Source: an uncultured Bdellovibrionales bacterium | Lineage (GTDB): Bacteria > Patescibacteriota > Minisyncoccia > Moranbacterales > DUUL01 | Length of the DNA: 59,173 nucleotides | Direction of reading: 5' to 3' | Assembly: GCA_964505305.1 (NCBI GenBank) | Contig: CAZDHE010000002.1 | Span: 1-59,173, forward strand | In this document: positions 37,261 through 47,538 of the stretch, in pieces | Layout of the letters: each line of letters starts with the position of its first letter | Numbering within the stretch: the stretch's first letter is position 1 | Notes under the pieces: generated by a model | Told to the model about the DNA's origin: nothing | The model's database searches: none | What the model saw: only the letters and a program-made list of their open reading frames with translations | Translations under genes and position numbers: made by a program

Positions 37261-37289
37261 ATTATATTCCACCAAGCTCCCCTTGTCAA
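37261..37289 (-). promoter_or_regulatory. Consensus sigma-70 promoter of the mraZ operon
   Basis: Minus strand TTGACA-17 nt-TATAAT (ttgaca aggggagcttggtggaa tataat). Confidence 0.85.
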
Positions 37290-37346
37290 ACATTTCCAAC
37301 CCTTTTTAGAATATCAAAAAAACGGCTTAAATAAGCCGTTTTAAAA
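37268..37346. repeat. 79-bp direct repeat copy A (terminator + -35 region), partner at 38420-38498
   Basis: 73/79 identical by manual alignment. Confidence 0.9.
37319..37342 (-). terminator. Intrinsic terminator hairpin
   Basis: aaaacggctta-aa-taagccgtttt perfect stem with T/A tails. Confidence 0.65.
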
Positions 37347-37576: not shown

Positions 37577-38251
37577 TTAAAGTTTTTCAACTTTTACTCC
37601 TGTAAACCTGCTTGGATCTTGGATAGATTTAATGAAGCCTGCATCGTATTTATTACTACTTAAATCAATATTACTAGCTTTTAATAATTCTTCTTTCTCC
37701 TCATCCGTCACCCATGTTTCTTCAAGAGGAATATTTTTTCTGGCCTTTGAAAAGAATATTTCCACCACTTCTCCATTATTTGTATTATATTCCACAGATA
37801 TTCCGTACCCATCTTTTTCAAAACGTTTTGTCCAAGTATCCGCCGAGTTCCCCTCAATTGCAGTCTCTGTTGGTTCGGGGTTATCATTAGTTGGCTCTCC
37901 ATACTGTTTAGTAAAATAAGAAATTTTTTTGTTTAATAGACTAGGCACATCAAAAACGATACTCTCTTCATTTTCTTCCCTGACAACCTTTTTATTGTCC
38001 TCCTGAACTTTTTCTACATTAATCTCCTCCTCAAATGAAGAATTAATAGCAAAAAGTAAAACCAATATGATTAAAGTTGATATAATTTTTATTGAATTAT
38101 TCCACTCTGTTTTCGCCCATATATACCAAATTAGAAAAAGGGGTAACAACAATATTACTAAAACCAAACCCCAACCAGAAGCATACCACTCTTTTTGTTT
38201 TTCACTCTTTTGATTTAACTCATTGTTTTTTTTATTGTTTGGTTTTTCCAT
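37577..38251 (-). CDS. Membrane-anchored protein, N-terminal paralog of 41461-42297
   Basis: KEWYASGWGLVLVILLLPLFLIWYIWAKTEWN versus KEWYQTGWGIVIAILFLPYFLVWYMWVKTNWN; C-terminal domains differ. Confidence 0.8.
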   Translation of the reverse strand: MEKPNNKKNNELNQKSEKQKEWYASGWGLVLVILLLPLFLIWYIWAKTEWNNSIKIISTLIILVLLFAINSSFEEEINVEKVQEDNKKVVREENEESIVFDVPSLLNKKISYFTKQYGEPTNDNPEPTETAIEGNSADTWTKRFEKDGYGISVEYNTNNGEVVEIFFSKARKNIPLEETWVTDEEKEELLKASNIDLSSNKYDAGFIKSIQDPSRFTGVKVEKL

Positions 38252-38419
38252 AATGCAAATTAATGATAATTTATTATAATTTTAAAAAAATACTAGACTA
38301 TTCGAAAATAAACATTATTTAACGAAACACCTTTCTGTCACCATTTGCAAAAACATTTAGAAAAAATGTCTATCATAAAAGTTGAATTCGCCATTTTTTT
38401 CTTCCTAATTTTAGGATAC

Positions 38420-38498
38420 TCCACCAAGCTCTCCTTGTCAAACATTTCCAACCCTTTTTAGAATATCTAAAAAACAGCTTAAAAAAGAAGTTTTAAAA
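38420..38498. repeat. 79-bp direct repeat copy B, abutting the tRNA-His 3' fragment
   Basis: tccaccaagctctccttgtcaaacatttccaaccctttttagaatatc...; terminator stem mutated; TTGACA-17-TATCCT retained on the minus strand. Confidence 0.9.
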
Positions 38499-40096
38499 TG
38501 GGCGACTAGAGGGGCTTGAACGATGACTTTCCTGTGAGCAGAGAATAAATCCTTAAAATCATCTCTTGGTTCAACGGCTACAACTTTCTTATTTTTTACC
38601 CAAATTCTTTTTATTGTCATTCTTATCCAGTCCCTTTTCTCTTCCTTAGAAAGTTCTTCTCTCCAGAATTTACCAAATTCTTTTAAAAATTTTTCGGTCT
38701 TTTTAATTCTTTGTTCTTGTTCTCTGGCAGTCATACTGCCTGTAACGCCTTTTCTTTCAAAGGATTCTATCTCTTCTTTTGCTTTTTGCATTTTATAAAG
38801 ATATTCGTTTTCTGGTATATGGCCATTTTCAAACATTACTTTCAATCTTTTTTTTCGAGATAAAATATTATGAATCTCTTCATCTGTTTTTTGATTTTTT
38901 GCGTTTTTCTTAAAAAGCTCTCTAAGACTTTCCAGTGTTAATTTTATAACATCCTCTGGCAATTTCATGCCACTCATAAACTGAAAAATTTGTTTATCAA
39001 TAATTTCGCATTCCACCTTAGGTTGCTTACAACTTTTATTCTCTTTCGCAAATTTGCAGGTATAAAAATAATTTTCTTTTCCCGTTTTATTGTTTCTGTG
39101 ATATTCACAATACATTGAGGGATGCATTCTTCTTAAACTACTCTTCTCGTTTCCTTTTAAATGTTTTATGCAATTATAACAATAAACTAAGCCTTGAAGA
39201 AGATAAAAACGATGTTTGGCAACTGGTCTCCCAAACTTTCCCTTTCTCTCCGCTAAAACATCTTGACATTTATCAAAAAGCTTTTTTGAAATGATTGGCT
39301 TATGAACAGTGCTCTTGATATCTGGCAATGGTTTCCTGGGAGACCAAACTAACCCTAGATAAGATTTATTTGGAATAATACATTTGACTGATGAGAAGGT
39401 GAAAGGATTTCCCATTCTTGTTTTATACCCTTCTTTCGTTAATATTTCAGCTATTTTTTGGATAGAGTAATTGCCGGAAGCATACATCTTAAAAATTCTT
39501 CTCACTATCTCTGCTTCCTTTTTATCTATGTGCCATTCTTTTGAATACAAGGGGCGATTTCTTTCATTATCCCACCCAAGCTTTTTTCTTTTATAACCAA
39601 GTGGCAAATTTCCCCCTATTGGTTTCCCTGAGCTTCTTTTTTGCATTAAAGCGCTTTTCACCCAAAAACCAAGCTGTCTTGAATAATATTCATCAAATAA
39701 TTCATTTATTCCCTCATTAAGGAAAGCGGACGGATCATTGAAATCTCCAAAATTCTGAGTTGTTGAAATCACATCAATTCCCTGTTTTTTTCTCAGTAAA
39801 TTTTTGTATTGCCTGGCCTCCTCGACATTTCTTGCAAATCTGGAAGTGTGAAAAACAATAATAACCTCAAACTTTTTTTGCATCGCATCTTCAATCATTA
39901 CCTGAAAATTGTCTCTTTTTGAGGCTATTTTTCCAGAAATTAGGTCTTTGTATATATGCTGGATTTCTATATTGTTTTTCTTGGCATATTCCCTTATTGC
40001 CCTTTCTTGGGCTTGAGGAGAAAACCCCTTGTCTTGCTATTCCGTGCTTTCTCTTATATAGCCAACGCCAATATTTTTTATCTTTTCATCTTTCAT
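38438..40096 (-). pseudogene. Large serine recombinase interrupted by in-frame TAG at codon 20 (40037-40039)
   Basis: MKDEKIKNIGVGYIRESTE*QDKGFSPQAQERAI... continues in frame into ORF 38438-39898 (VFHTSRFARN, GGNLPLGY recombinase domain, LLQGLVYCYNC zinc ribbon, coiled coil). Confidence 0.88.
38501..38513 (-). pseudogene. 3' fragment of host tRNA-His (T-stem 3' strand + acceptor + C73), left junction
   Basis: Minus strand CCCTC-TAGTCGC-C pairs exactly with GAGGG and GGCGACTA of the 5' fragment at 47197-47258. Confidence 0.88.
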
Positions 40097-40221
40097 TTTG
40101 AGGATTTATTAAATAGACTATCTTAATGAAAAAATTTTTAATTAAGATGTGAAGTGTGAAATTCATCAAAAAATCAATAAACATCGCCCTTTGGGGTGAT
40201 TAATCTTGTTTTATTGCTTTA

Positions 40222-40647
40222 TTATAAACCAAGAATCGATTTTTTCTTGGCCTGGAATTCTTCTTCGCTGATAATTTCTTGATCTCTTAGGTCAGCTAGT
40301 TTTTTAATCTCATCAGCGTAATTATTTGTAGATTGTGGTTTTGTTTCATTCGCAACATCTGCTATTTTTTGATCAATTAATTCCTTGGCTTTATCTGCCT
40401 CTTTTTTATTAACAGCTTTAATAATTAAATTTCCGCTTCCTCCCTTATTAACTATTTCAATATCAGCAGTTAAGAAACCTCTTGTAATATTTATTTGAGC
40501 GATATTTTGGTAAAGTAGGTGCATTTTTACCCTTTTCCCTACAACCAATCCTTCTCCATAAACCCCATCCTCCAAAACTTGTAATTCTTGCTTCCAAGTG
40601 TTTGATAATAGTTTACTTCCTTTTACTGTCATTAAAATCTTTGCCAT
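40222..40647 (-). CDS. PH-like domain + C-terminal SHOCT domain protein
   Basis: C-terminal ADEIKKLADLRDQEIISEEEFQAKKKSIL is a SHOCT-type motif. Confidence 0.8.
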   Translation of the reverse strand: MAKILMTVKGSKLLSNTWKQELQVLEDGVYGEGLVVGKRVKMHLLYQNIAQINITRGFLTADIEIVNKGGSGNLIIKAVNKKEADKAKELIDQKIADVANETKPQSTNNYADEIKKLADLRDQEIISEEEFQAKKKSILGL

Positions 40648-40673
40648 ATTTTTTATTAATTGTTAATTTAAAA

Positions 40674-41441
40674 CTAGTTATTTATAATAAGGTTTCTTTT
40701 TATCTCATTAAAGCATTCACTTGGGCTTCTTGGGGGATTTATCGCCTTTTTTTCTTTTTCTGCAAATTTATTATATATTTCTTCAATTTTTTTCTTCTTC
40801 AAATCCAATTTTTTAATAATTTTTTCTATTCTTTCAATTACTCCTGGAGCTAGAAAAGAAAATTCTTGATCAAAGGGCTTCATAATATCATCTTCTAATT
40901 TTACTACGTTCTCAGAATCGTCCAAGGGCATGTTTTGGGGTCCATTCAAATCTAGGTAACATACAGCCAAATAAAAGCCTAAAGCATACTCCAATTTGTT
41001 CTGCCTTCTAAGCATTTCCCCCATCTGAAATCTTGTGTTTCTATATAGTCCCCATTGATGTTTTTTTGCATAATTCAAAATGTCCTCATTCAACAAGCTC
41101 CATTGAACATCAAAATCTGAAATTTTATTTTTGCTTTCTGATTTATTTAATAATTTCTCTTTTCTTTTTCGATACCTTTCCTTTTCTACTAAGTAAGCCT
41201 CTTGTGTACCATTTTTAATTCGCCATTCTTCATCAATTTTATCTGCTTCGCTTTTTGTCACAGTTAACCTGACACCTCTTGTGTTGGTGCGAACATAAAT
41301 ATAGTTATCACAACTTGAGCATTTTGTTTTAGCGCCAGGTTTCTTCTCTAAACATTTCCCACAGTAAGGACACTCAGCTTTTCGCTGATCTTTGCCCCTT
41401 TTTTTAATATTTATGAAATTAAATATTTTCACAATAATCAA
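40674..41441 (-). CDS. Zinc-ribbon (CPYC...CSSC) helical protein of unknown function
   Basis: ECPYCGKCL...TKCSSCDNYIYVR, WGLYRNTRFQM, VCYLDLNGP. Confidence 0.7.
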   Translation of the reverse strand: MIIVKIFNFINIKKRGKDQRKAECPYCGKCLEKKPGAKTKCSSCDNYIYVRTNTRGVRLTVTKSEADKIDEEWRIKNGTQEAYLVEKERYRKRKEKLLNKSESKNKISDFDVQWSLLNEDILNYAKKHQWGLYRNTRFQMGEMLRRQNKLEYALGFYLAVCYLDLNGPQNMPLDDSENVVKLEDDIMKPFDQEFSFLAPGVIERIEKIIKKLDLKKKKIEEIYNKFAEKEKKAINPPRSPSECFNEIKRNLIINN

Positions 41442-41460
41442 TCTGTTTTAATGATTGAGC

Positions 41461-42297
41461 TTATTTAATCGCAGGATGTTCTTGATAGAAGGCTGCCACT
41501 TTTTCCAGATTTTCTCTCAAGAAATTATCCCAATTTATCTCTTTTATATCTTCACTTTTTAAAGAAACTGTTAAAACATTCTCACTAGACTCATTCCCTT
41601 TCACATCAACCAATGGCAGTTCAGCTACTATAGTTACCCGACGGAAATTGTCCAATATTTGATTATTTAAATTGGAAAACACATTTACCATGTCAGTTTT
41701 AATACCACCTGCTGTCATGCCGGAAGTAAAATTTTCGCTAGCACGAAATTTAATCCACAATTCATTCCTCTCTGTTTTTATTGAAATAACAGTTTTTTTA
41801 TCCATATTGTTCTTTTCTCCGATTTGGTTAACGACAACTGTCTCTGCATCTCGTAAAAGAGTGTCCTTTTTTGTTTCCCACTGATAGTTACTCTTTTTTT
41901 CATCTTCTTTCTTATCTGAGGAATCTTCTTCCGTTTTAGTATCCCCAACTTGTTCCTTTTCTTGATTAGTTGCCACATCATTTTGAGGTGGTTCACTATC
42001 ACTATCTAAAACAGCTATGTTTACGATTACAAATATAATTGTAATCGCAATTTTTAATTTCTTATTCCAATTTGTTTTTACCCACATATACCATACTAAA
42101 AAATATGGCAAAAATAAGATGGCAATAACTATGCCCCACCCTGTTTGATACCATTCTTTTTTTTGGCTTTTTTGTGCCTCGCCACTAGGCATTTGTTGAT
42201 CATTCATTTTTTTAAATAAATTGTTAACTAGAATTTTATCGTCCATAGGTACACAAAAGGCCCCACGAATCGACGACAGTCCTTTCGGAATGCCCAA
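41461..42297 (-). CDS. Membrane-anchored secreted-domain protein (start probably 42247 or 42207)
   Basis: Two TM helices shared with 37577-38251, acidic linker, C-terminal globular domain. Confidence 0.75.
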   Translation of the reverse strand: MGIPKGLSSIRGAFCVPMDDKILVNNLFKKMNDQQMPSGEAQKSQKKEWYQTGWGIVIAILFLPYFLVWYMWVKTNWNKKLKIAITIIFVIVNIAVLDSDSEPPQNDVATNQEKEQVGDTKTEEDSSDKKEDEKKSNYQWETKKDTLLRDAETVVVNQIGEKNNMDKKTVISIKTERNELWIKFRASENFTSGMTAGGIKTDMVNVFSNLNNQILDNFRRVTIVAELPLVDVKGNESSENVLTVSLKSEDIKEINWDNFLRENLEKVAAFYQEHPAIK

Positions 42298-42299
42298 TG

Positions 42300-42400
42300 T
42301 CCTTTCAGATCATTGACCTAGCTAACAAGTGTCGACCGCGAGGCCGTCTCTGTTAGCTAGGATTTGATGCCATGCCCACGCAAAAAGCATGAGTTTAGGC
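42300..42400 (-). ncRNA. Candidate structured 5' leader/ncRNA
   Basis: Perfect cctagctaaca/tgttagctagg stem (about 42317-42361) in a GC-rich intergenic patch with GAAA-loop hairpins nearby. Confidence 0.35.
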
Positions 42401-42653
42401 TTTTTTCTATCTTTATTTTAAACCCTTATGGCTAAAAGATCAAGGTTTTAAAAAATTAACAACCTAAACATTGGAAATATTTTTACCCCCCCCTGAAAAT
42501 TATTAACCATTAGATTATTTAGCCGCTCAATGTGTGTAAAAATTTACACACATAATGGCGTAATACTATATTGATATTTCACAAGAACATTCATAATTTT
42601 TCCATATTTTATTAATATAATTCAATCTTGATAAATTTTTATGCAACAAAGAT

Positions 42654-42685
42654 AAGCAAAAGGCGACTGCGGTTGCCTTTTGCTT
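42654..42685 (-). terminator. Intrinsic terminator after the DUF4352-like gene
   Basis: aagcaaaaggcg ... tgccttttgctt stem. Confidence 0.7.
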
Positions 42686-42701
42686 TAAGATTCAAGATGT
42701 T

Positions 42702-43250
42702 TTAGTACAGCTGAATTTCAACATTGTCGCTACTCCAAAAGTCAGGAGTAAATTGTAATTTAAATTTCTCTGAATCTTCAGGCGTTTCAAATGTAACCCA
42801 CCCTCTAACTTTTCCACCAGGATTAAGTGTTCCAGAACTCAGTTCAGGTTCTTTATCTTCCGTCATGCCTTGGTCGAAACTATAACCTTCGCTGTCATAA
42901 AGTTTCCAATCGAAAGGATTGTAGCTTAGTGATTTATCAGAGGTATTGTTCTCGTATTTAACTTCTATAGCCACAAGCTTATTCCCCGCTTCCGGTTGCA
43001 TAAACTCGTTTTTCGCTTTGAACGGGTCTTCCATGTCCGTTACTGTCACTGCATAGTCGCCAAGTTTTATATCCTCGCCCAATTTGAACGTTTTTTGGGC
43101 TTCTTTTTTTTCTTCTTGGGAGGATTTTTTGGATGAAGAGTCATCAACCTTTTCTGGTTGTGTTCCTTGAGGCACACCCGAAGAACCTGTGCATCCTGCC
43201 AGGAAAACAAGTGCAATAAAAAATGCAGACAAAGTTAATGCCTTTTTCAT
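42702..43250 (-). CDS. DUF4352-like lipoprotein
   Basis: Lipobox FLAGC; FKLGE, VAIEVKYENN, FDWKLYDSEGYSF, GTLNPGGKVRGWVTFETP. Confidence 0.85.
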   Translation of the reverse strand: MKKALTLSAFFIALVFLAGCTGSSGVPQGTQPEKVDDSSSKKSSQEEKKEAQKTFKLGEDIKLGDYAVTVTDMEDPFKAKNEFMQPEAGNKLVAIEVKYENNTSDKSLSYNPFDWKLYDSEGYSFDQGMTEDKEPELSSGTLNPGGKVRGWVTFETPEDSEKFKLQFTPDFWSSDNVEIQLY

Positions 43251-43296
43251 ATTATCACCCCCTTTCCACGAAAATTTATTTGCATTAGATGATTAA

Positions 43297-43464
43297 TTAA
43301 TTTAATCTTTCACGTAAATTTTGAGACTCTTGTTGCAACCTCTCACCTCTTTTCTCCATTTTATCTAATTTTTTATCATTTTGCCATATTCTAAACACTC
43401 CAAACAAAAATATCGCAAGCACAACAGAAACAATAACAAGAGCTAACCTGCTAGGTTTTTTCAT
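43297..43464 (-). CDS. 55-aa single-TM + coiled-coil peptide (not in ORF track)
   Basis: Manual translation MKKPSRLALVIVSVVLAIFLFGVFRIWQNDKKLDKMEKRGERLQQESQNLRERLN. Confidence 0.7.
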   Translation of the reverse strand: MKKPSRLALVIVSVVLAIFLFGVFRIWQNDKKLDKMEKRGERLQQESQNLRERLN

Positions 43465-43539
43465 TATTTTTTATTAAAGTTTAAGGTAACCAACTAATTT
43501 CTTTTTTTGACTGAGGAAACAAAAAAGGACAGCCGAGCC

Positions 43540-43652
43540 GTTCACCCACAACAAACTTCGCGAGGAAGTCCAATTATGGAACTCGACTGCCCATTACTAT
43601 CCACAATCGGATAAATAGGCAGTGCCTCGCGAAATCTGAGTTGTAGGTGAAC
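43540..43652 (-). ncRNA. Long multi-stem hairpin starting at a predicted transcription start
   Basis: GTTCACCTACAAC/GTTGTGGGTGAAC, TTCGCGAGG/CCTCGCGAA, ACTGCC/GGCAGT and TATCC/GGATA stems; TATAAT 6 nt upstream (43659-43664). Confidence 0.5.
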
Positions 43653-43843
43653 ATTTAAATTATAACAAAATATATAAAAAAAGCAAAAACAAGAAATTTA
43701 TAAAATGAAAAGGCTTCGTTCTTAATAAACACAAAGTTAGATAAAAAACTGTGATCTTCTTTTTGTCCAACTTATTAGACACATTTTCACGTAATACTTA
43801 AAAAACAAGAGGCATATCAAAATATGTCTTTTTAATAGTGTAA

Positions 43844-44998
43844 TTATAATAACTTTGTTTGCCCAAAAGGCTTCAAAGCAAATTCGGATAAAAAATAATT
43901 ATGTATTTTACTAGCCGTTAAGTTGTTTAATGATGCAAAGTTTATCTGTTTTGCTATTTTATTAATTTCATTTATATGGTTGTAATATGTTTGTCGGCTC
44001 TTGTAGTTATTAAATGAATATTCCTTAAATCCTTTCACCCCGCCTTTTGACTGAATTTTTTCAATAGCATATTTCGCAAGCATCCTTTTATCAATGCGTT
44101 TTATATTTTTATCTAATATTGCTTCTACTAATGGAGAGTTTGAGCTACTTAAAAAAATGAAGTCTTGTAGAGGGTGAACGAAAATTCTTTTAACTTCTTT
44201 TTTTAATAATTCTTTCCAGATTTCATTCTTGAAGATATTTTCAATAGTTACTTCATTGCAATTATAGAGCTTAAGTCTACTCTTAATCGTGCTTTTTCTC
44301 TTCAATGTCAACTCTACTCTTATTAATTCGCATAATAACACCTTATTTTTCTTGTATCTCTCGTTGCTCAAAGATTTAATGACATTCTTTTCCTTTGGAG
44401 TAATTGCATTTGATTTTAACTCCTGTAACTTTGAATAAACCTTAAAAGTCGAAGATTTTGTACTGTAGTATAGCTCAGCTCCTCCGTCTCGGGGCTTTAT
44501 AATATAGCAACTGGATCTAAAACGATCATCAAATTTTGACAATGTATCTATAACTTGTTCACAGCTACAAATTTCTGTGAAGTCTATATTTTTACTAAAA
44601 GCCACCAAGGAAGGTTCGGCATCAAGAATTTCTTTCGAAAAAATCTTTCTTGTACCAATGTCATTTTCTAAGAAAGATTGCATCTTTTCAACAAACGGCA
44701 ACAAGTCACTATCTCGTGGAATTGCAATATTATGACCATATAGAAATTTTGGAACTGAAACTTCTATAAACAATTTTTTGTTTTGAGGATTTAAAAAGTC
44801 TTCTTGAAACCATATTTTTGGTGTATATATTCCTCTCTTTTTCCTCTCTTTTCTCCAGTTATTTGCTGTATAGACATATCTAGAGCTTCCTTTGTCAACA
44901 GGGCTATTTATTAATTCTTTATACTTAATTTTTTCTGAAAAAAATTCCTGGGCTTTTCTATCAAACTTTATATTTAATGCAAATTTCACAGTATCCAT
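43844..44998 (-). CDS. Putative rolling-circle replication initiator (Rep_trans / phage gpII-X-like)
   Basis: MDTVK start, IEVSVPKFLYGHN, ELYYSTKSSTFKVYSKLQE and IRVELTLK resemble motifs of this superfamily; recognition only. Confidence 0.55.
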   Translation of the reverse strand: MDTVKFALNIKFDRKAQEFFSEKIKYKELINSPVDKGSSRYVYTANNWRKERKKRGIYTPKIWFQEDFLNPQNKKLFIEVSVPKFLYGHNIAIPRDSDLLPFVEKMQSFLENDIGTRKIFSKEILDAEPSLVAFSKNIDFTEICSCEQVIDTLSKFDDRFRSSCYIIKPRDGGAELYYSTKSSTFKVYSKLQELKSNAITPKEKNVIKSLSNERYKKNKVLLCELIRVELTLKRKSTIKSRLKLYNCNEVTIENIFKNEIWKELLKKEVKRIFVHPLQDFIFLSSSNSPLVEAILDKNIKRIDKRMLAKYAIEKIQSKGGVKGFKEYSFNNYKSRQTYYNHINEINKIAKQINFASLNNLTASKIHNYFLSEFALKPFGQTKLL

Positions 44999-45019
44999 AG
45001 AGGAGTTTTGAAGAAGAAG

Positions 45020-45220
45020 CTAAGTCATTGCCCTAGGTTCTCGGGAAAACTCCTCAGAAAACCCTTTCCTAGGGCAATGGCTTTGCTCTTCCTTGGTTAA
45101 TGGATTATTTTCAAAGTGTCTGTTATTCCAAAATTCAAAGAAAAATCCGGCTAATTGTTCTGCAACCGCTTTATTTTGTTTATCAGTGATTTTTGGATTC
45201 TTATTATTAGTCATTTTCAA
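45020..45220 (-). CDS. Small hypothetical protein upstream of Rep
   Basis: 66-aa ORF in operon-like position; function unknown. Confidence 0.55.
   Translation of the reverse strand: MKMTNNKNPKITDKQNKAVAEQLAGFFFEFWNNRHFENNPLTKEEQSHCPRKGFSEEFSREPRAMT
45026..45079. repeat. Perfect 12-bp inverted repeat upstream of rep
   Basis: cattgccctagg (45026-45037) / cctagggcaatg (45068-45079). Confidence 0.8.
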
Positions 45221-45228
45221 TTAAAAAA

Positions 45229-45249
45229 ACTGCAAATTATATTTGCAGT
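45229..45249. promoter_or_regulatory. Palindromic operator candidate
   Basis: actgcaaat-tat-atttgcagt directly upstream of the small ORF/rep unit. Confidence 0.5.
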
Positions 45250-45292
45250 CTAAGATAATTAAAAATAACGTGATATTACCAATAAAGAATCC

Positions 45293-46054
45293 TTATATGT
45301 CAGTGATTCGTTTTTTAATTCTGTTCAGGATTATACCGATATCATCGTATAATAATGCTTTCCCTTTAAATTCTTCATTTATCTTTTTTGCTATCTCAGA
45401 ATAAGACAGTCCCTTTTCTCGTAAATCATAAATTCTTAAATCCCTATTGAAGTTTGTTTTAGGTTTATTTCTTCCTTCTTTGTAATTCATCGTCCTTTTC
45501 TTATATCGTTTTATTAAAGGCCATACATTCTCTATATCCTTTATCGTTGTGTTACTAAAAACCTCTAAAAAGAGTCTGTAAGTTTTTTTATCTTCTTTAT
45601 CTCTTTCAAACCAAAATCCAACATTATCTCTTGGAATGTAAACTAATGTGTTGTTTGTAAGATATAGCATTACTGTTTTGTGGTAGTGCTGAGAAATGCT
45701 ATATTTTTTCATTATTTCATCAATTTCACTATAAAACTTATTTAAGGGTGTTTTCTGATCTAATTTTGTAAGTTTGCTTTTACAGCTATCATAGGTCTTG
45801 TAATCCTTGCTCTTTTTTGCTTGTTCAATCTTTTTAAGCAGAGTTCTTCTATTGTCATTATAATCTTTACTTGCTATAAACTTATCAGTTTCCCTTCCGA
45901 GCCAATGCCACCATCCCTCTACTTCTTCATCCTTCAAGCCCTCATCTCCAATAAGCCATTTTTTACGAAAAGAGAGCGCTTCGTCTTGGAAGGATTTTTT
46001 TCTTATCAACAATTCAAATTTTTGCCTATTAAAACTCGAGGAATTATTTTTCAT
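45293..46054 (-). CDS. Protein with C-terminal helix-turn-helix (element regulator candidate)
   Basis: RDLRIYDLREKGLSYSEIAKKINEEF...IGIILNRIKKRI. Confidence 0.65.
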   Translation of the reverse strand: MKNNSSSFNRQKFELLIRKKSFQDEALSFRKKWLIGDEGLKDEEVEGWWHWLGRETDKFIASKDYNDNRRTLLKKIEQAKKSKDYKTYDSCKSKLTKLDQKTPLNKFYSEIDEIMKKYSISQHYHKTVMLYLTNNTLVYIPRDNVGFWFERDKEDKKTYRLFLEVFSNTTIKDIENVWPLIKRYKKRTMNYKEGRNKPKTNFNRDLRIYDLREKGLSYSEIAKKINEEFKGKALLYDDIGIILNRIKKRITDI

Positions 46055-46117
46055 TTTTTTAAATATTTACTAAAAAAGAACTGCAAAAACAGTTCTTTAA
46101 GCTGAAATCTGCAGAGG

Positions 46118-46189
46118 GGCGAGTAAAGGGAATTGAACCCTTATGTCCGGTGCCACAAACCGGTGTTCTACCATTGAACTATACTCGCC
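46118..46189 (-). tRNA. tRNA-His(GTG), intact, element-borne
   Basis: G-1:C73, GCGAGTA/TACTCGC acceptor, CCGGT-TTGTGGC-ACCGG anticodon arm, AAGGG-TTCAATT-CCCTT T-arm. Confidence 0.95.
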
Positions 46190-46256
46190 CCACTATAGAC
46201 TTCCACGAGATAATTAACGAAAATTAAAGATAAATTATATCATATAAACAATTATA

Positions 46257-47066
46257 TTACAATAGTTTGTTGTAATCATACTGAACATCTTTTGGTGCAA
46301 ATATAATGCCAAAGCCATTTACCCTCCCTCCCTTATTGTCTCTAATGTTATCTTTAATAACGTCATAATATTTCTTATTATCTTTTTTAAAATATTCTCT
46401 TACTGCTCCAGTTGTGAAATCCGCTACTTGCAAGAGTTCGCAATATTTAGCATGAGTGTAAAATAAAGTCTCACGCAAACAATGTCTTAACTCAATTTTT
46501 TTCCAATCCTTTCCTTCAATGTATATATCTTCAAAATCATCACTATACATATGACCTTTTTTCCATAAATCGTTATAAGTTTTTGCAAGATTCACCTTTT
46601 TTTTAGGTCCAAGATAATCTATTATCATTTGTCCATGAGGATAATATCCTTGTTTTGTTGCATTAAAACCAACTTTCCCTGACAAGAAAAAAACAAATCT
46701 TTCAGCTAACCTAGAAAGTGCGAAACACTGAGAATTCCAATAATTATCATCGTTTCTTATTACTGAACAAATTATTGTTGTTTCATATTCCTTCAATAGA
46801 TTAAGAACTTCTTCTCGCAATTTGTTTCTTTTAGCAGGAGGGAGGGCATATTGTTCAGGACATTCTCTTTTTGTTGGAGACCATTTTATATAAGCATCTT
46901 CATTTCCTAATATATCCTGTTTTATTTTTTTTAATTCAAGTTGAAAATTTGCCTCCCTCATTCCATTTTTTATAATAAATCCGCCTAGATAACAAGGATT
47001 CTCATTGGTTCCAGAATCATCTAGATAAAAAACAAATCTTTCAGGCACTTTATTTTCAGTCAACAT
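46257..47066 (-). CDS. DUF3800-like (RNase H-like fold) protein
   Basis: FYLDDSG N-terminal motif and LLQVADF C-terminal motif. Confidence 0.75.
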   Translation of the reverse strand: MLTENKVPERFVFYLDDSGTNENPCYLGGFIIKNGMREANFQLELKKIKQDILGNEDAYIKWSPTKRECPEQYALPPAKRNKLREEVLNLLKEYETTIICSVIRNDDNYWNSQCFALSRLAERFVFFLSGKVGFNATKQGYYPHGQMIIDYLGPKKKVNLAKTYNDLWKKGHMYSDDFEDIYIEGKDWKKIELRHCLRETLFYTHAKYCELLQVADFTTGAVREYFKKDNKKYYDVIKDNIRDNKGGRVNGFGIIFAPKDVQYDYNKLL

Positions 47067-47196
47067 TATAAAATTACAATTTAGTATGTAAAATCATTTC
47101 AACGCAGAATTATGAGATTGATGCACCTTATAATGATCACATCCCAATAATTTTATTCTTTTCCATATCTTGTAGCTAGGAAAGTCATTGTCTTGG

Positions 47197-47258
47197 GGGA
47201 ATTGAACCCTCATATCCGGTGCCACAAACCGGTGTTCTACCATTGAACTATAGTCGCC
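47197..47258 (-). pseudogene. 5' fragment of host tRNA-His(GTG), right junction
   Basis: GGCGACTATAGTTCAATGGTAGAACACCGGTTTGTGGCACCGGATATGAGGGTTCAATTCCC then diverges (CCAAGAC); no acceptor 3' strand locally. Confidence 0.9.
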
Positions 47259-47364
47259 ATATGTTTTTAATGTATCTCAAATCAATGCTTTTTCCTATAG
47301 TCAGCCCGGCATTCGCCGGGTTCTCAATTTTATTGCTAAATCAAAGATTTAGATAAAATTGGAA

Positions 47365-47380
47365 AACTATAGTCGCCATA
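47365..47380. repeat. 16-bp direct repeat of the tRNA-His 5' end
   Basis: aactatagtcgccata, identical to 47246-47261. Confidence 0.8.
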
Positions 47381-47538
47381 AAATTAAAAATACTAATTTA
47401 CTCACTGTCTTTTTCCTATAATTGCGAGGACATAGGATTTTTTTAGATTCCTATGGGATAAGTTAAAACAAGACTTACTCACTCGGCGTACAAGGTTAAG
47501 AATAGCATAATTATTGATTTTAATCAATAGGCCGTAAA

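Follow-up and report, generated by a model that had tools for sequence, protein, structure and literature searches.

Phage-type serine integrases, among them those of phiC31, Bxb1 and TP901-1 and the Int protein of Listeria A118, catalyse recombination between attP and attB and need a directionality factor for excision. The well-studied members mostly target protein-coding or intergenic sites. Serine recombinases cannot cleave DNA strands without the serine nucleophile and its arginine and tyrosine neighbours, and nonsense mutation of the integrase, with the rest of the element intact, is a frequent form of decay.

Integration into tRNA genes has been described in another setting. Actinobacteriophages (Fionnbharth and Cluster L; Guerrero-Bustamante and Hatfull 2024) show tRNA-dependent lysogeny, in which a host tRNA is lost on integration and made good by a phage-encoded tRNA of the same isotype, an arrangement defined with tyrosine integrases and temperate phages (PMC10865867).

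The window analysed here, a 59,173-bp contig, carries an integrated element whose recombinase gene resembles those of the serine integrases both in its product, whose N-terminal resolvase catalytic domain, bearing the Y-x-R-x-S nucleophile motif, is followed by a recombinase domain and a zinc ribbon rich in Cys, and in its place at the edge of the element beside an att junction. It differs from them in that the window copy is a nonsense pseudogene. It also belongs to a Patescibacteria clade, with at most 76% identity to anything found and no solved or studied member identified, in which attP overlaps the 3' end of the coding sequence and integration targets the T-arm of a tRNA; for the window element we inferred the att sites from the split tRNA. 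As in tRNA-dependent lysogeny (PMC10865867), integration in the window leaves no functional host tRNA, whereas the corresponding gene of the same-genus genome G001 is uninterrupted, and a tRNA-His(GTG) is carried inside the element, as it is in the related locus L002. Unlike that system, the enzyme is a serine recombinase, the element is small and has a replication gene but no recognisable virion genes, and the recombinase is probably dead and the arrangement frozen. By this comparison, the arrangement appears to work like tRNA-dependent lysogeny while not being a member of that system. Cryptic or defective prophages and integrative elements with nonsense-mutated integrases share with the locus an early nonsense codon as the one lesion of the recombinase gene and, presumably, an immobile element. 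They differ from the window element in that the latter holds what is apparently the only functional tRNA-His of its host, so that it would not be simply deletable afterwards.

Table 1. Positions in the window of the recombinase gene, its interrupting codon and the parts of the integrated element.
Feature	Position	Strand	Remark
Large serine recombinase (LSR) gene	38438..40096	-	552 codons; one internal TAG
In-frame TAG (codon 20)	40037..40039	-	three codons past catalytic Ser17
Catalytic Ser17 codon (AGC)	40046..40048	-	Y13-x-R15-E16-S17 motif, invariant in 114 and in 26 sequences
Met67, first in-frame ATG/GTG/TTG after the TAG	39896..39898	-	re-initiated product would lack the active site
Integrated element, ~8.7 kb	38511..47196	-	crossover ambiguous within the C-run at each junction
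Host tRNA-His 3' part (TC TAGTCGC C C) at attR	38500..38510	-	read as recombinase tail ..QAPLVAH..
Host tRNA-His 5' 62 nt at attL	47197..47258	-	98% identical to the intact tRNA-His of same-genus G001
Element-borne intact tRNA-His(GTG)	46116..46188	-	own compensated stems
Replication protein gene of the element, intact, 384 aa	43844..44998	-	phrog_702, 2.1e-7; 382 aa in L002

An original prediction for this DNA had placed the true start of the gene at 40096, with a TAG three codons beyond the catalytic serine, and had pointed out that the protein in the open reading frame track, which begins at 39898, lacks that serine. The minus-strand translation bears out all three points. From the ATG at 40096 the frame reads MKDEKIKNIGVGYIRESTE*QDKGFSPQAQ..., with the catalytic stretch YIRESTE*Q, and the N-termini of homologs (MKNETKQKIGVAYIRESTEEQDKGF...) confirm this start. 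Under the standard code the product from this ATG has 19 residues; after the TAG a further 532 codons are open, up to the TGA at 38440-38438. The stretch between the TAG and Met67 holds no in-frame ATG, GTG or TTG, and the longest standard ORF, which begins at Met67 past Ser17, encodes 486 aa without Tyr13, Arg15, Ser17 or Gln21. The observation of a TAG-interrupted recombinase gene is thus confirmed. This TAG is the sole one to interrupt a long gene in the window, the others in long TAA/TGA-free stretches lying at gene ends or in leaders, and its site falls outside any homopolymer or repeat.

When the stop is read through, the product matches the Pfam families Resolvase (PF00239, 2.5e-24, residues 11-158) and Recombinase (PF07508, 4.8e-19); the zinc ribbon (PF13408) is weak, at 20.3 bits against a cut-off of 25.3, and in the family alignment the zinc-ribbon residues Cys306, Cys347 and Cys356 are invariant and Cys309 nearly so. 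Taken together, these matches identify the product as a large serine recombinase. The gene encodes the resolvase-type catalytic domain with its serine nucleophile motif (Y13, R15, E16, S17 and Q21) and the C-terminal recombinase and zinc-ribbon/coiled-coil domain, but lacks an uninterrupted full-length frame, having TAG at codon 20 under the standard code with RF1 present. It is a member of the LSR family by descent, but a pseudogene. Its final ~12 codons cross attR into the 3' half of the host tRNA-His and the host flank.

The genome uses the standard code. In the assembly (0.99 Mb, 57 contigs, 37% GC, 88% complete) TAG terminates 102 of 551 long ORFs, the release factors RF1 (PDT tripeptide) and RF2 (SPF) have genes on contigs C51 and C25, respectively, and no tRNA with a CUA anticodon occurs among the tRNAs. 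Within the element itself, TAG is the genuine stop of the gene at 40674-41441, and it closes the conserved 64-aa ORF that precedes the replication gene in the window and in L002 alike. An alternative code or a suppressor tRNA was ruled out on these grounds. Programmed recoding is likewise not supported. There is no suppressor tRNA, no loss of RF1, no other internal TAG in the window and no stimulatory RNA structure 3' of the stop: a 106-nt segment from just before the TAG has no notable fold (MFE -17.9 kcal/mol, z = -1.45), and 16 of 200 shuffled sequences fold at least as well. A programmed or recurrent stop was also rejected, with none found at codon 20 in 29 related loci or in 114 database homologs.

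A search of sequence databases returned 650 homologs, nearly all of them 530-550 aa in length and from metagenome bins of Patescibacteria (CPR). Their N-termini match the window residue for residue (...YIRESTEEQDKGFSP...), and the STEEQ reading that had been anticipated as one of two at the interrupted site is the one seen in them. Y13, R15, E16, S17 and Q21 are invariant across the 114 full-length homologs, in which column 20 is Glu in 89 and Asp in 15, with a few S, G or A. At the DNA level, the homologous codon in the 29 related loci is GAA in 10, GAG in 9, GAC in 5 and another in 4. It is GAG in L002, the closest homolog compared by DNA (75% amino acid identity), so that one G>T transversion suffices to produce the TAG, in keeping with the single substitution (from GAG or CAG) proposed at the outset. 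No stop at codon 20 was present in any of the 25 family members from GTDB representative genomes, two of which are broken at other sites: in the pseudogene L049 (JBDRLV010000060.1) the frame is stopped internally twice, near query positions 438 and 442, and in the pseudogene L056 (JBATNS010000038.1) it is shifted near query position 320. From these two cases, sporadic decay of recombinase genes appears to be normal in the family.

A second assembly carries the same lesion. The 55,555-bp contig of GCA_048619615.1 (locus L001) has the identical TAG and differs from the window by three SNPs in 21,209 aligned bp, none of them inside the element; a common study or site may lie behind both assemblies. 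Since the TAG is common to both, a one-off consensus error is unlikely, and of the three options first offered for the stop (a recent event, a polymorphism or a consensus error) the last has lost ground. The stop is probably not an assembly slip. The truncated recombinase is annotated as 486 aa on the window contig and as 402 aa on the 55,555-bp contig, and for annotation purposes both public gene calls are pseudogene fragments.

The element is arranged as a DUF3800 gene, the tRNA-His, a 253-aa ORF, the 64-aa ORF, the replication protein gene, a DUF4352 lipoprotein-like gene, two unknown genes, a SHOCT-domain gene and the recombinase gene; a comparison with PHROGs found the replication protein and no recognisable virion genes, and no gene for a directionality factor was recognised. 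At its ends lie the two parts of a split host gene. Joining 47257-47197 to 38510-38500 in silico yields a perfect 72-nt tRNA-His(GTG), and the pairing partners of the acceptor and T-stem strands in 38510-38500 lie in the 47258-47197 half, not in the tRNA that the element carries. ARAGORN called no tRNA at attL. The crossover site is the C-run in the T-arm of the host tRNA-His; the predicted attP is GTTCAAG-CCCCCC-AAGACAATGAC, with the junction sequence GTTCAAGCCCCCCAAGACAATGAC, and the predicted restored attB is GAGGGTTCAATTCCCTCTAGTCGCCCA followed by TTTTAAAAC. L002 begins, at a contig break, inside tRNA-His in the same place, beside its 251-aa gene, and the tRNA-His of G001 is intact and lies upstream of the same M16-peptidase gene. 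No intact tRNA-His other than the element copy was found in the 0.99-Mb, 88%-complete assembly, which fits the earlier suggestion that the host depends on it. Precise excision would restore the host tRNA, so that the host would be 'locked' onto the element copy because the recombinase is dead, and not by integration as such.

Searches for unoccupied or excised forms covered public sequence collections and relatives. The predicted attP junction had no match in viral_contigs as a sign of an excised or circular form, and an exact search of public metagenomes for the empty site, using the restored tRNA-His 3' half, returned 12 contigs that share only the tRNA with the window, so that none is of the same species. 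The two genomes of the same genus, G001 and G002, lack the element, their best recombinase matches being less than 30% identical. In G001, tRNA-His and mraZ lie 679 kb apart, and local synteny therefore gave no clean empty site beyond the tRNA itself.

We consider it likely that a recent G-to-T nonsense mutation (GAG, Glu20, to TAG) inactivated the LSR of this 8.7-kb element and stranded it in the tRNA-His gene. The proposed course would begin when the element integrated into the T-arm of tRNA-His, for which the small CPR (Patescibacteria) genome had a single gene; one G-to-T change would have turned the GAG codon of Glu20 into TAG. The gene would thereafter yield no catalytically competent recombinase, since its product either ends after 19 residues or restarts past the active-site block, and strand cleavage would not occur. 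Help in trans is unlikely, as the only other serine recombinase in the 88%-complete assembly is 23% identical. The element could then presumably no longer excise or re-integrate on its own, excision could not rebuild the split host tRNA-His, and the element tRNA-His would become a fixed gene, presumably indispensable to the host. Such a loss would be the first step of ordinary mobile-element decay or domestication, and what we have here is an ordinary pseudogene in an interesting setting.

The state of the gene bears on the age of the lesion. At 87 columns conserved in at least 90% of the 114 homologs the window copy shows no deviation, where the median for intact homologs is two, and the other element genes are open, those that can be set against L002 having practically the same lengths (253 versus 251 aa and 384 versus 382 aa). 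This lack of decay in the gene and in the rest of the element makes the lesion look young, and the zero deviations support the 'recent event' of the original prediction. A recent stop and continuing selection on the recombinase gene would equally fit these counts. The stop is at the same time old enough to be common to two assemblies that have since diverged at three sites.

Other accounts of the TAG begin from the same near-perfect gene. Basal UAG readthrough in bacteria is generally very low. If the stop were nevertheless leaky, near-cognate decoding of UAG, for example by tRNA-Gln(CUG), which the genome encodes, could yield a trace of active recombinase with excision throttled but not abolished. 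Judging by the residues that homologs accept at position 20 (E, D, G, S, A and L), most readthrough products should work, and both the absence of decay elsewhere in the gene and the retention of the TAG in two slightly diverged assemblies would suit such a hypomorph. Against it, the genome encodes RF1 and uses TAG as an ordinary stop in element and host, the assembly holds no suppressor tRNA, the z of -1.45 marks no notable 3' structure, and the stop does not recur in any of the 29 loci or 114 homologs, all of which makes a leaky stop decidedly unlikely. A broader form of the idea, that the TAG is either hypomorphic, with rare and possibly active readthrough, or fixed by host-level selection because it makes a self-replicating parasite a lasting, heritable tRNA locus, we regard as unlikely; if true, it would mean a CPR genome caught swapping a core tRNA gene for a mobile-element copy.

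A single-base lesion in a gene that is perfect otherwise is also what a consensus or assembly error, or a minority allele in a population whose cells mostly carry a sense codon and an active recombinase, would look like. This is a quite improbable account, however, given the identical base in the second assembly (55,555- versus 59,173-bp contigs, with the three SNPs falling elsewhere), a site that is neither homopolymer nor repeat, and the lack of any intact allele among 5.8 billion protein clusters, in which the top intact homolog is 76% identical. One could instead credit the 486-aa Met67 product with a role of its own, as a DNA-binding protein without an active site that regulates or blocks related incoming elements through attL/attR or attB-like sites. 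It would keep the recombinase and zinc-ribbon domains, and every family-invariant downstream residue is intact. Yet no family member naturally starts near Met67 (of the shorter database matches examined, P0095 runs off a contig end and P0084 lacks part of its C-terminus), a search of 39800-40300 turned up no promoter-like site on the gene's strand, and nothing sets this reading apart from a young pseudogene; we hold it to be very improbable. The nonsense mutation that inactivated the recombinase and stranded the element remains our preferred explanation, in support of the original reading of the stop.

Taken by itself, the locus adds one more integrase pseudogene, the usual first step in the decay of a mobile element. 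Its value comes from its setting, a little-studied clade of Patescibacteria serine recombinases whose insertion sites are tRNA genes. With its recombinase inactive, the element would leave the host tRNA-His beyond restoration, and the mobile-element tRNA has apparently become a fixed core gene. The locus thereby offers a concrete case, and one that can be dated, of the way in which mobile elements may let streamlined CPR genomes exchange essential tRNA genes.

Relatives of the recombinase are found near tRNA-His genes elsewhere. In at least ten GTDB loci (L036, L037, L042, L046, L051, L053, L054, L057, L059 and L078), recombinases of the Patescibacteria family lie 3-9 kb downstream of a co-oriented tRNA-His. 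In L002, L033, L034 and L035 the recombinase genes end in 3' halves that resemble those of tRNA-His, with acceptor stems that vary from host to host; a host tRNA-Arg is next in three of these four, and tRNA-Arg(tcg) often follows. These loci suggest a widespread clade of tRNA-targeting serine recombinases that carry attP within the 3' end of their gene.

Several repeats and small genes were observed in and around the element. Upstream of its replication gene, the conserved 64-aa ORF (45022-45214, minus strand) has a homolog of 62 aa in L002. The 3' end of this ORF and the leader of the replication gene are overlapped by a 27-nt inverted repeat (45011-45037 and 45068-45094, 81% complementary), which may serve as an origin or a control hairpin. 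A read-through fusion of the small ORF with the replication gene was ruled out, as the frames differ in L002. On the attR side, an 83-nt direct repeat, 92% identical between 37264-37346 and 38416-38498, lies upstream of mraZ and includes sequence resembling a terminator and a TTGACA promoter. Between its two copies is a DUF443-like membrane gene (37577-38251) whose N-terminus is 52% identical over 62 aa to the element gene at 41461-42297, and the second copy of the repeat directly abuts the 3' half of the host tRNA-His.

On the attL side, a 16-nt direct repeat (TATGGCGACTATAGTT, minus strand) at 47246-47261 and 47365-47396 brackets an insert of ~103 nt with a GC-rich hairpin (CCCGGCGAATGCCGGG). 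It is made up of 3 nt from the upstream flank and 13 nt from the start of the tRNA-His gene (G-1 plus 12 tRNA nt), and the native upstream flank, as in G001, adjoins its outer copy. It seems that this tRNA-His was struck near its 5' end by an older event. In G001 itself (L030; G001:C2, ~1114640-1114700), a 17-nt repeat, CACCGGATATAAGGGTT, lies ~24 nt downstream of the intact tRNA-His and copies its anticodon-stem/T-stem segment, and may be a scar left when an earlier element integrated and excised at this site.
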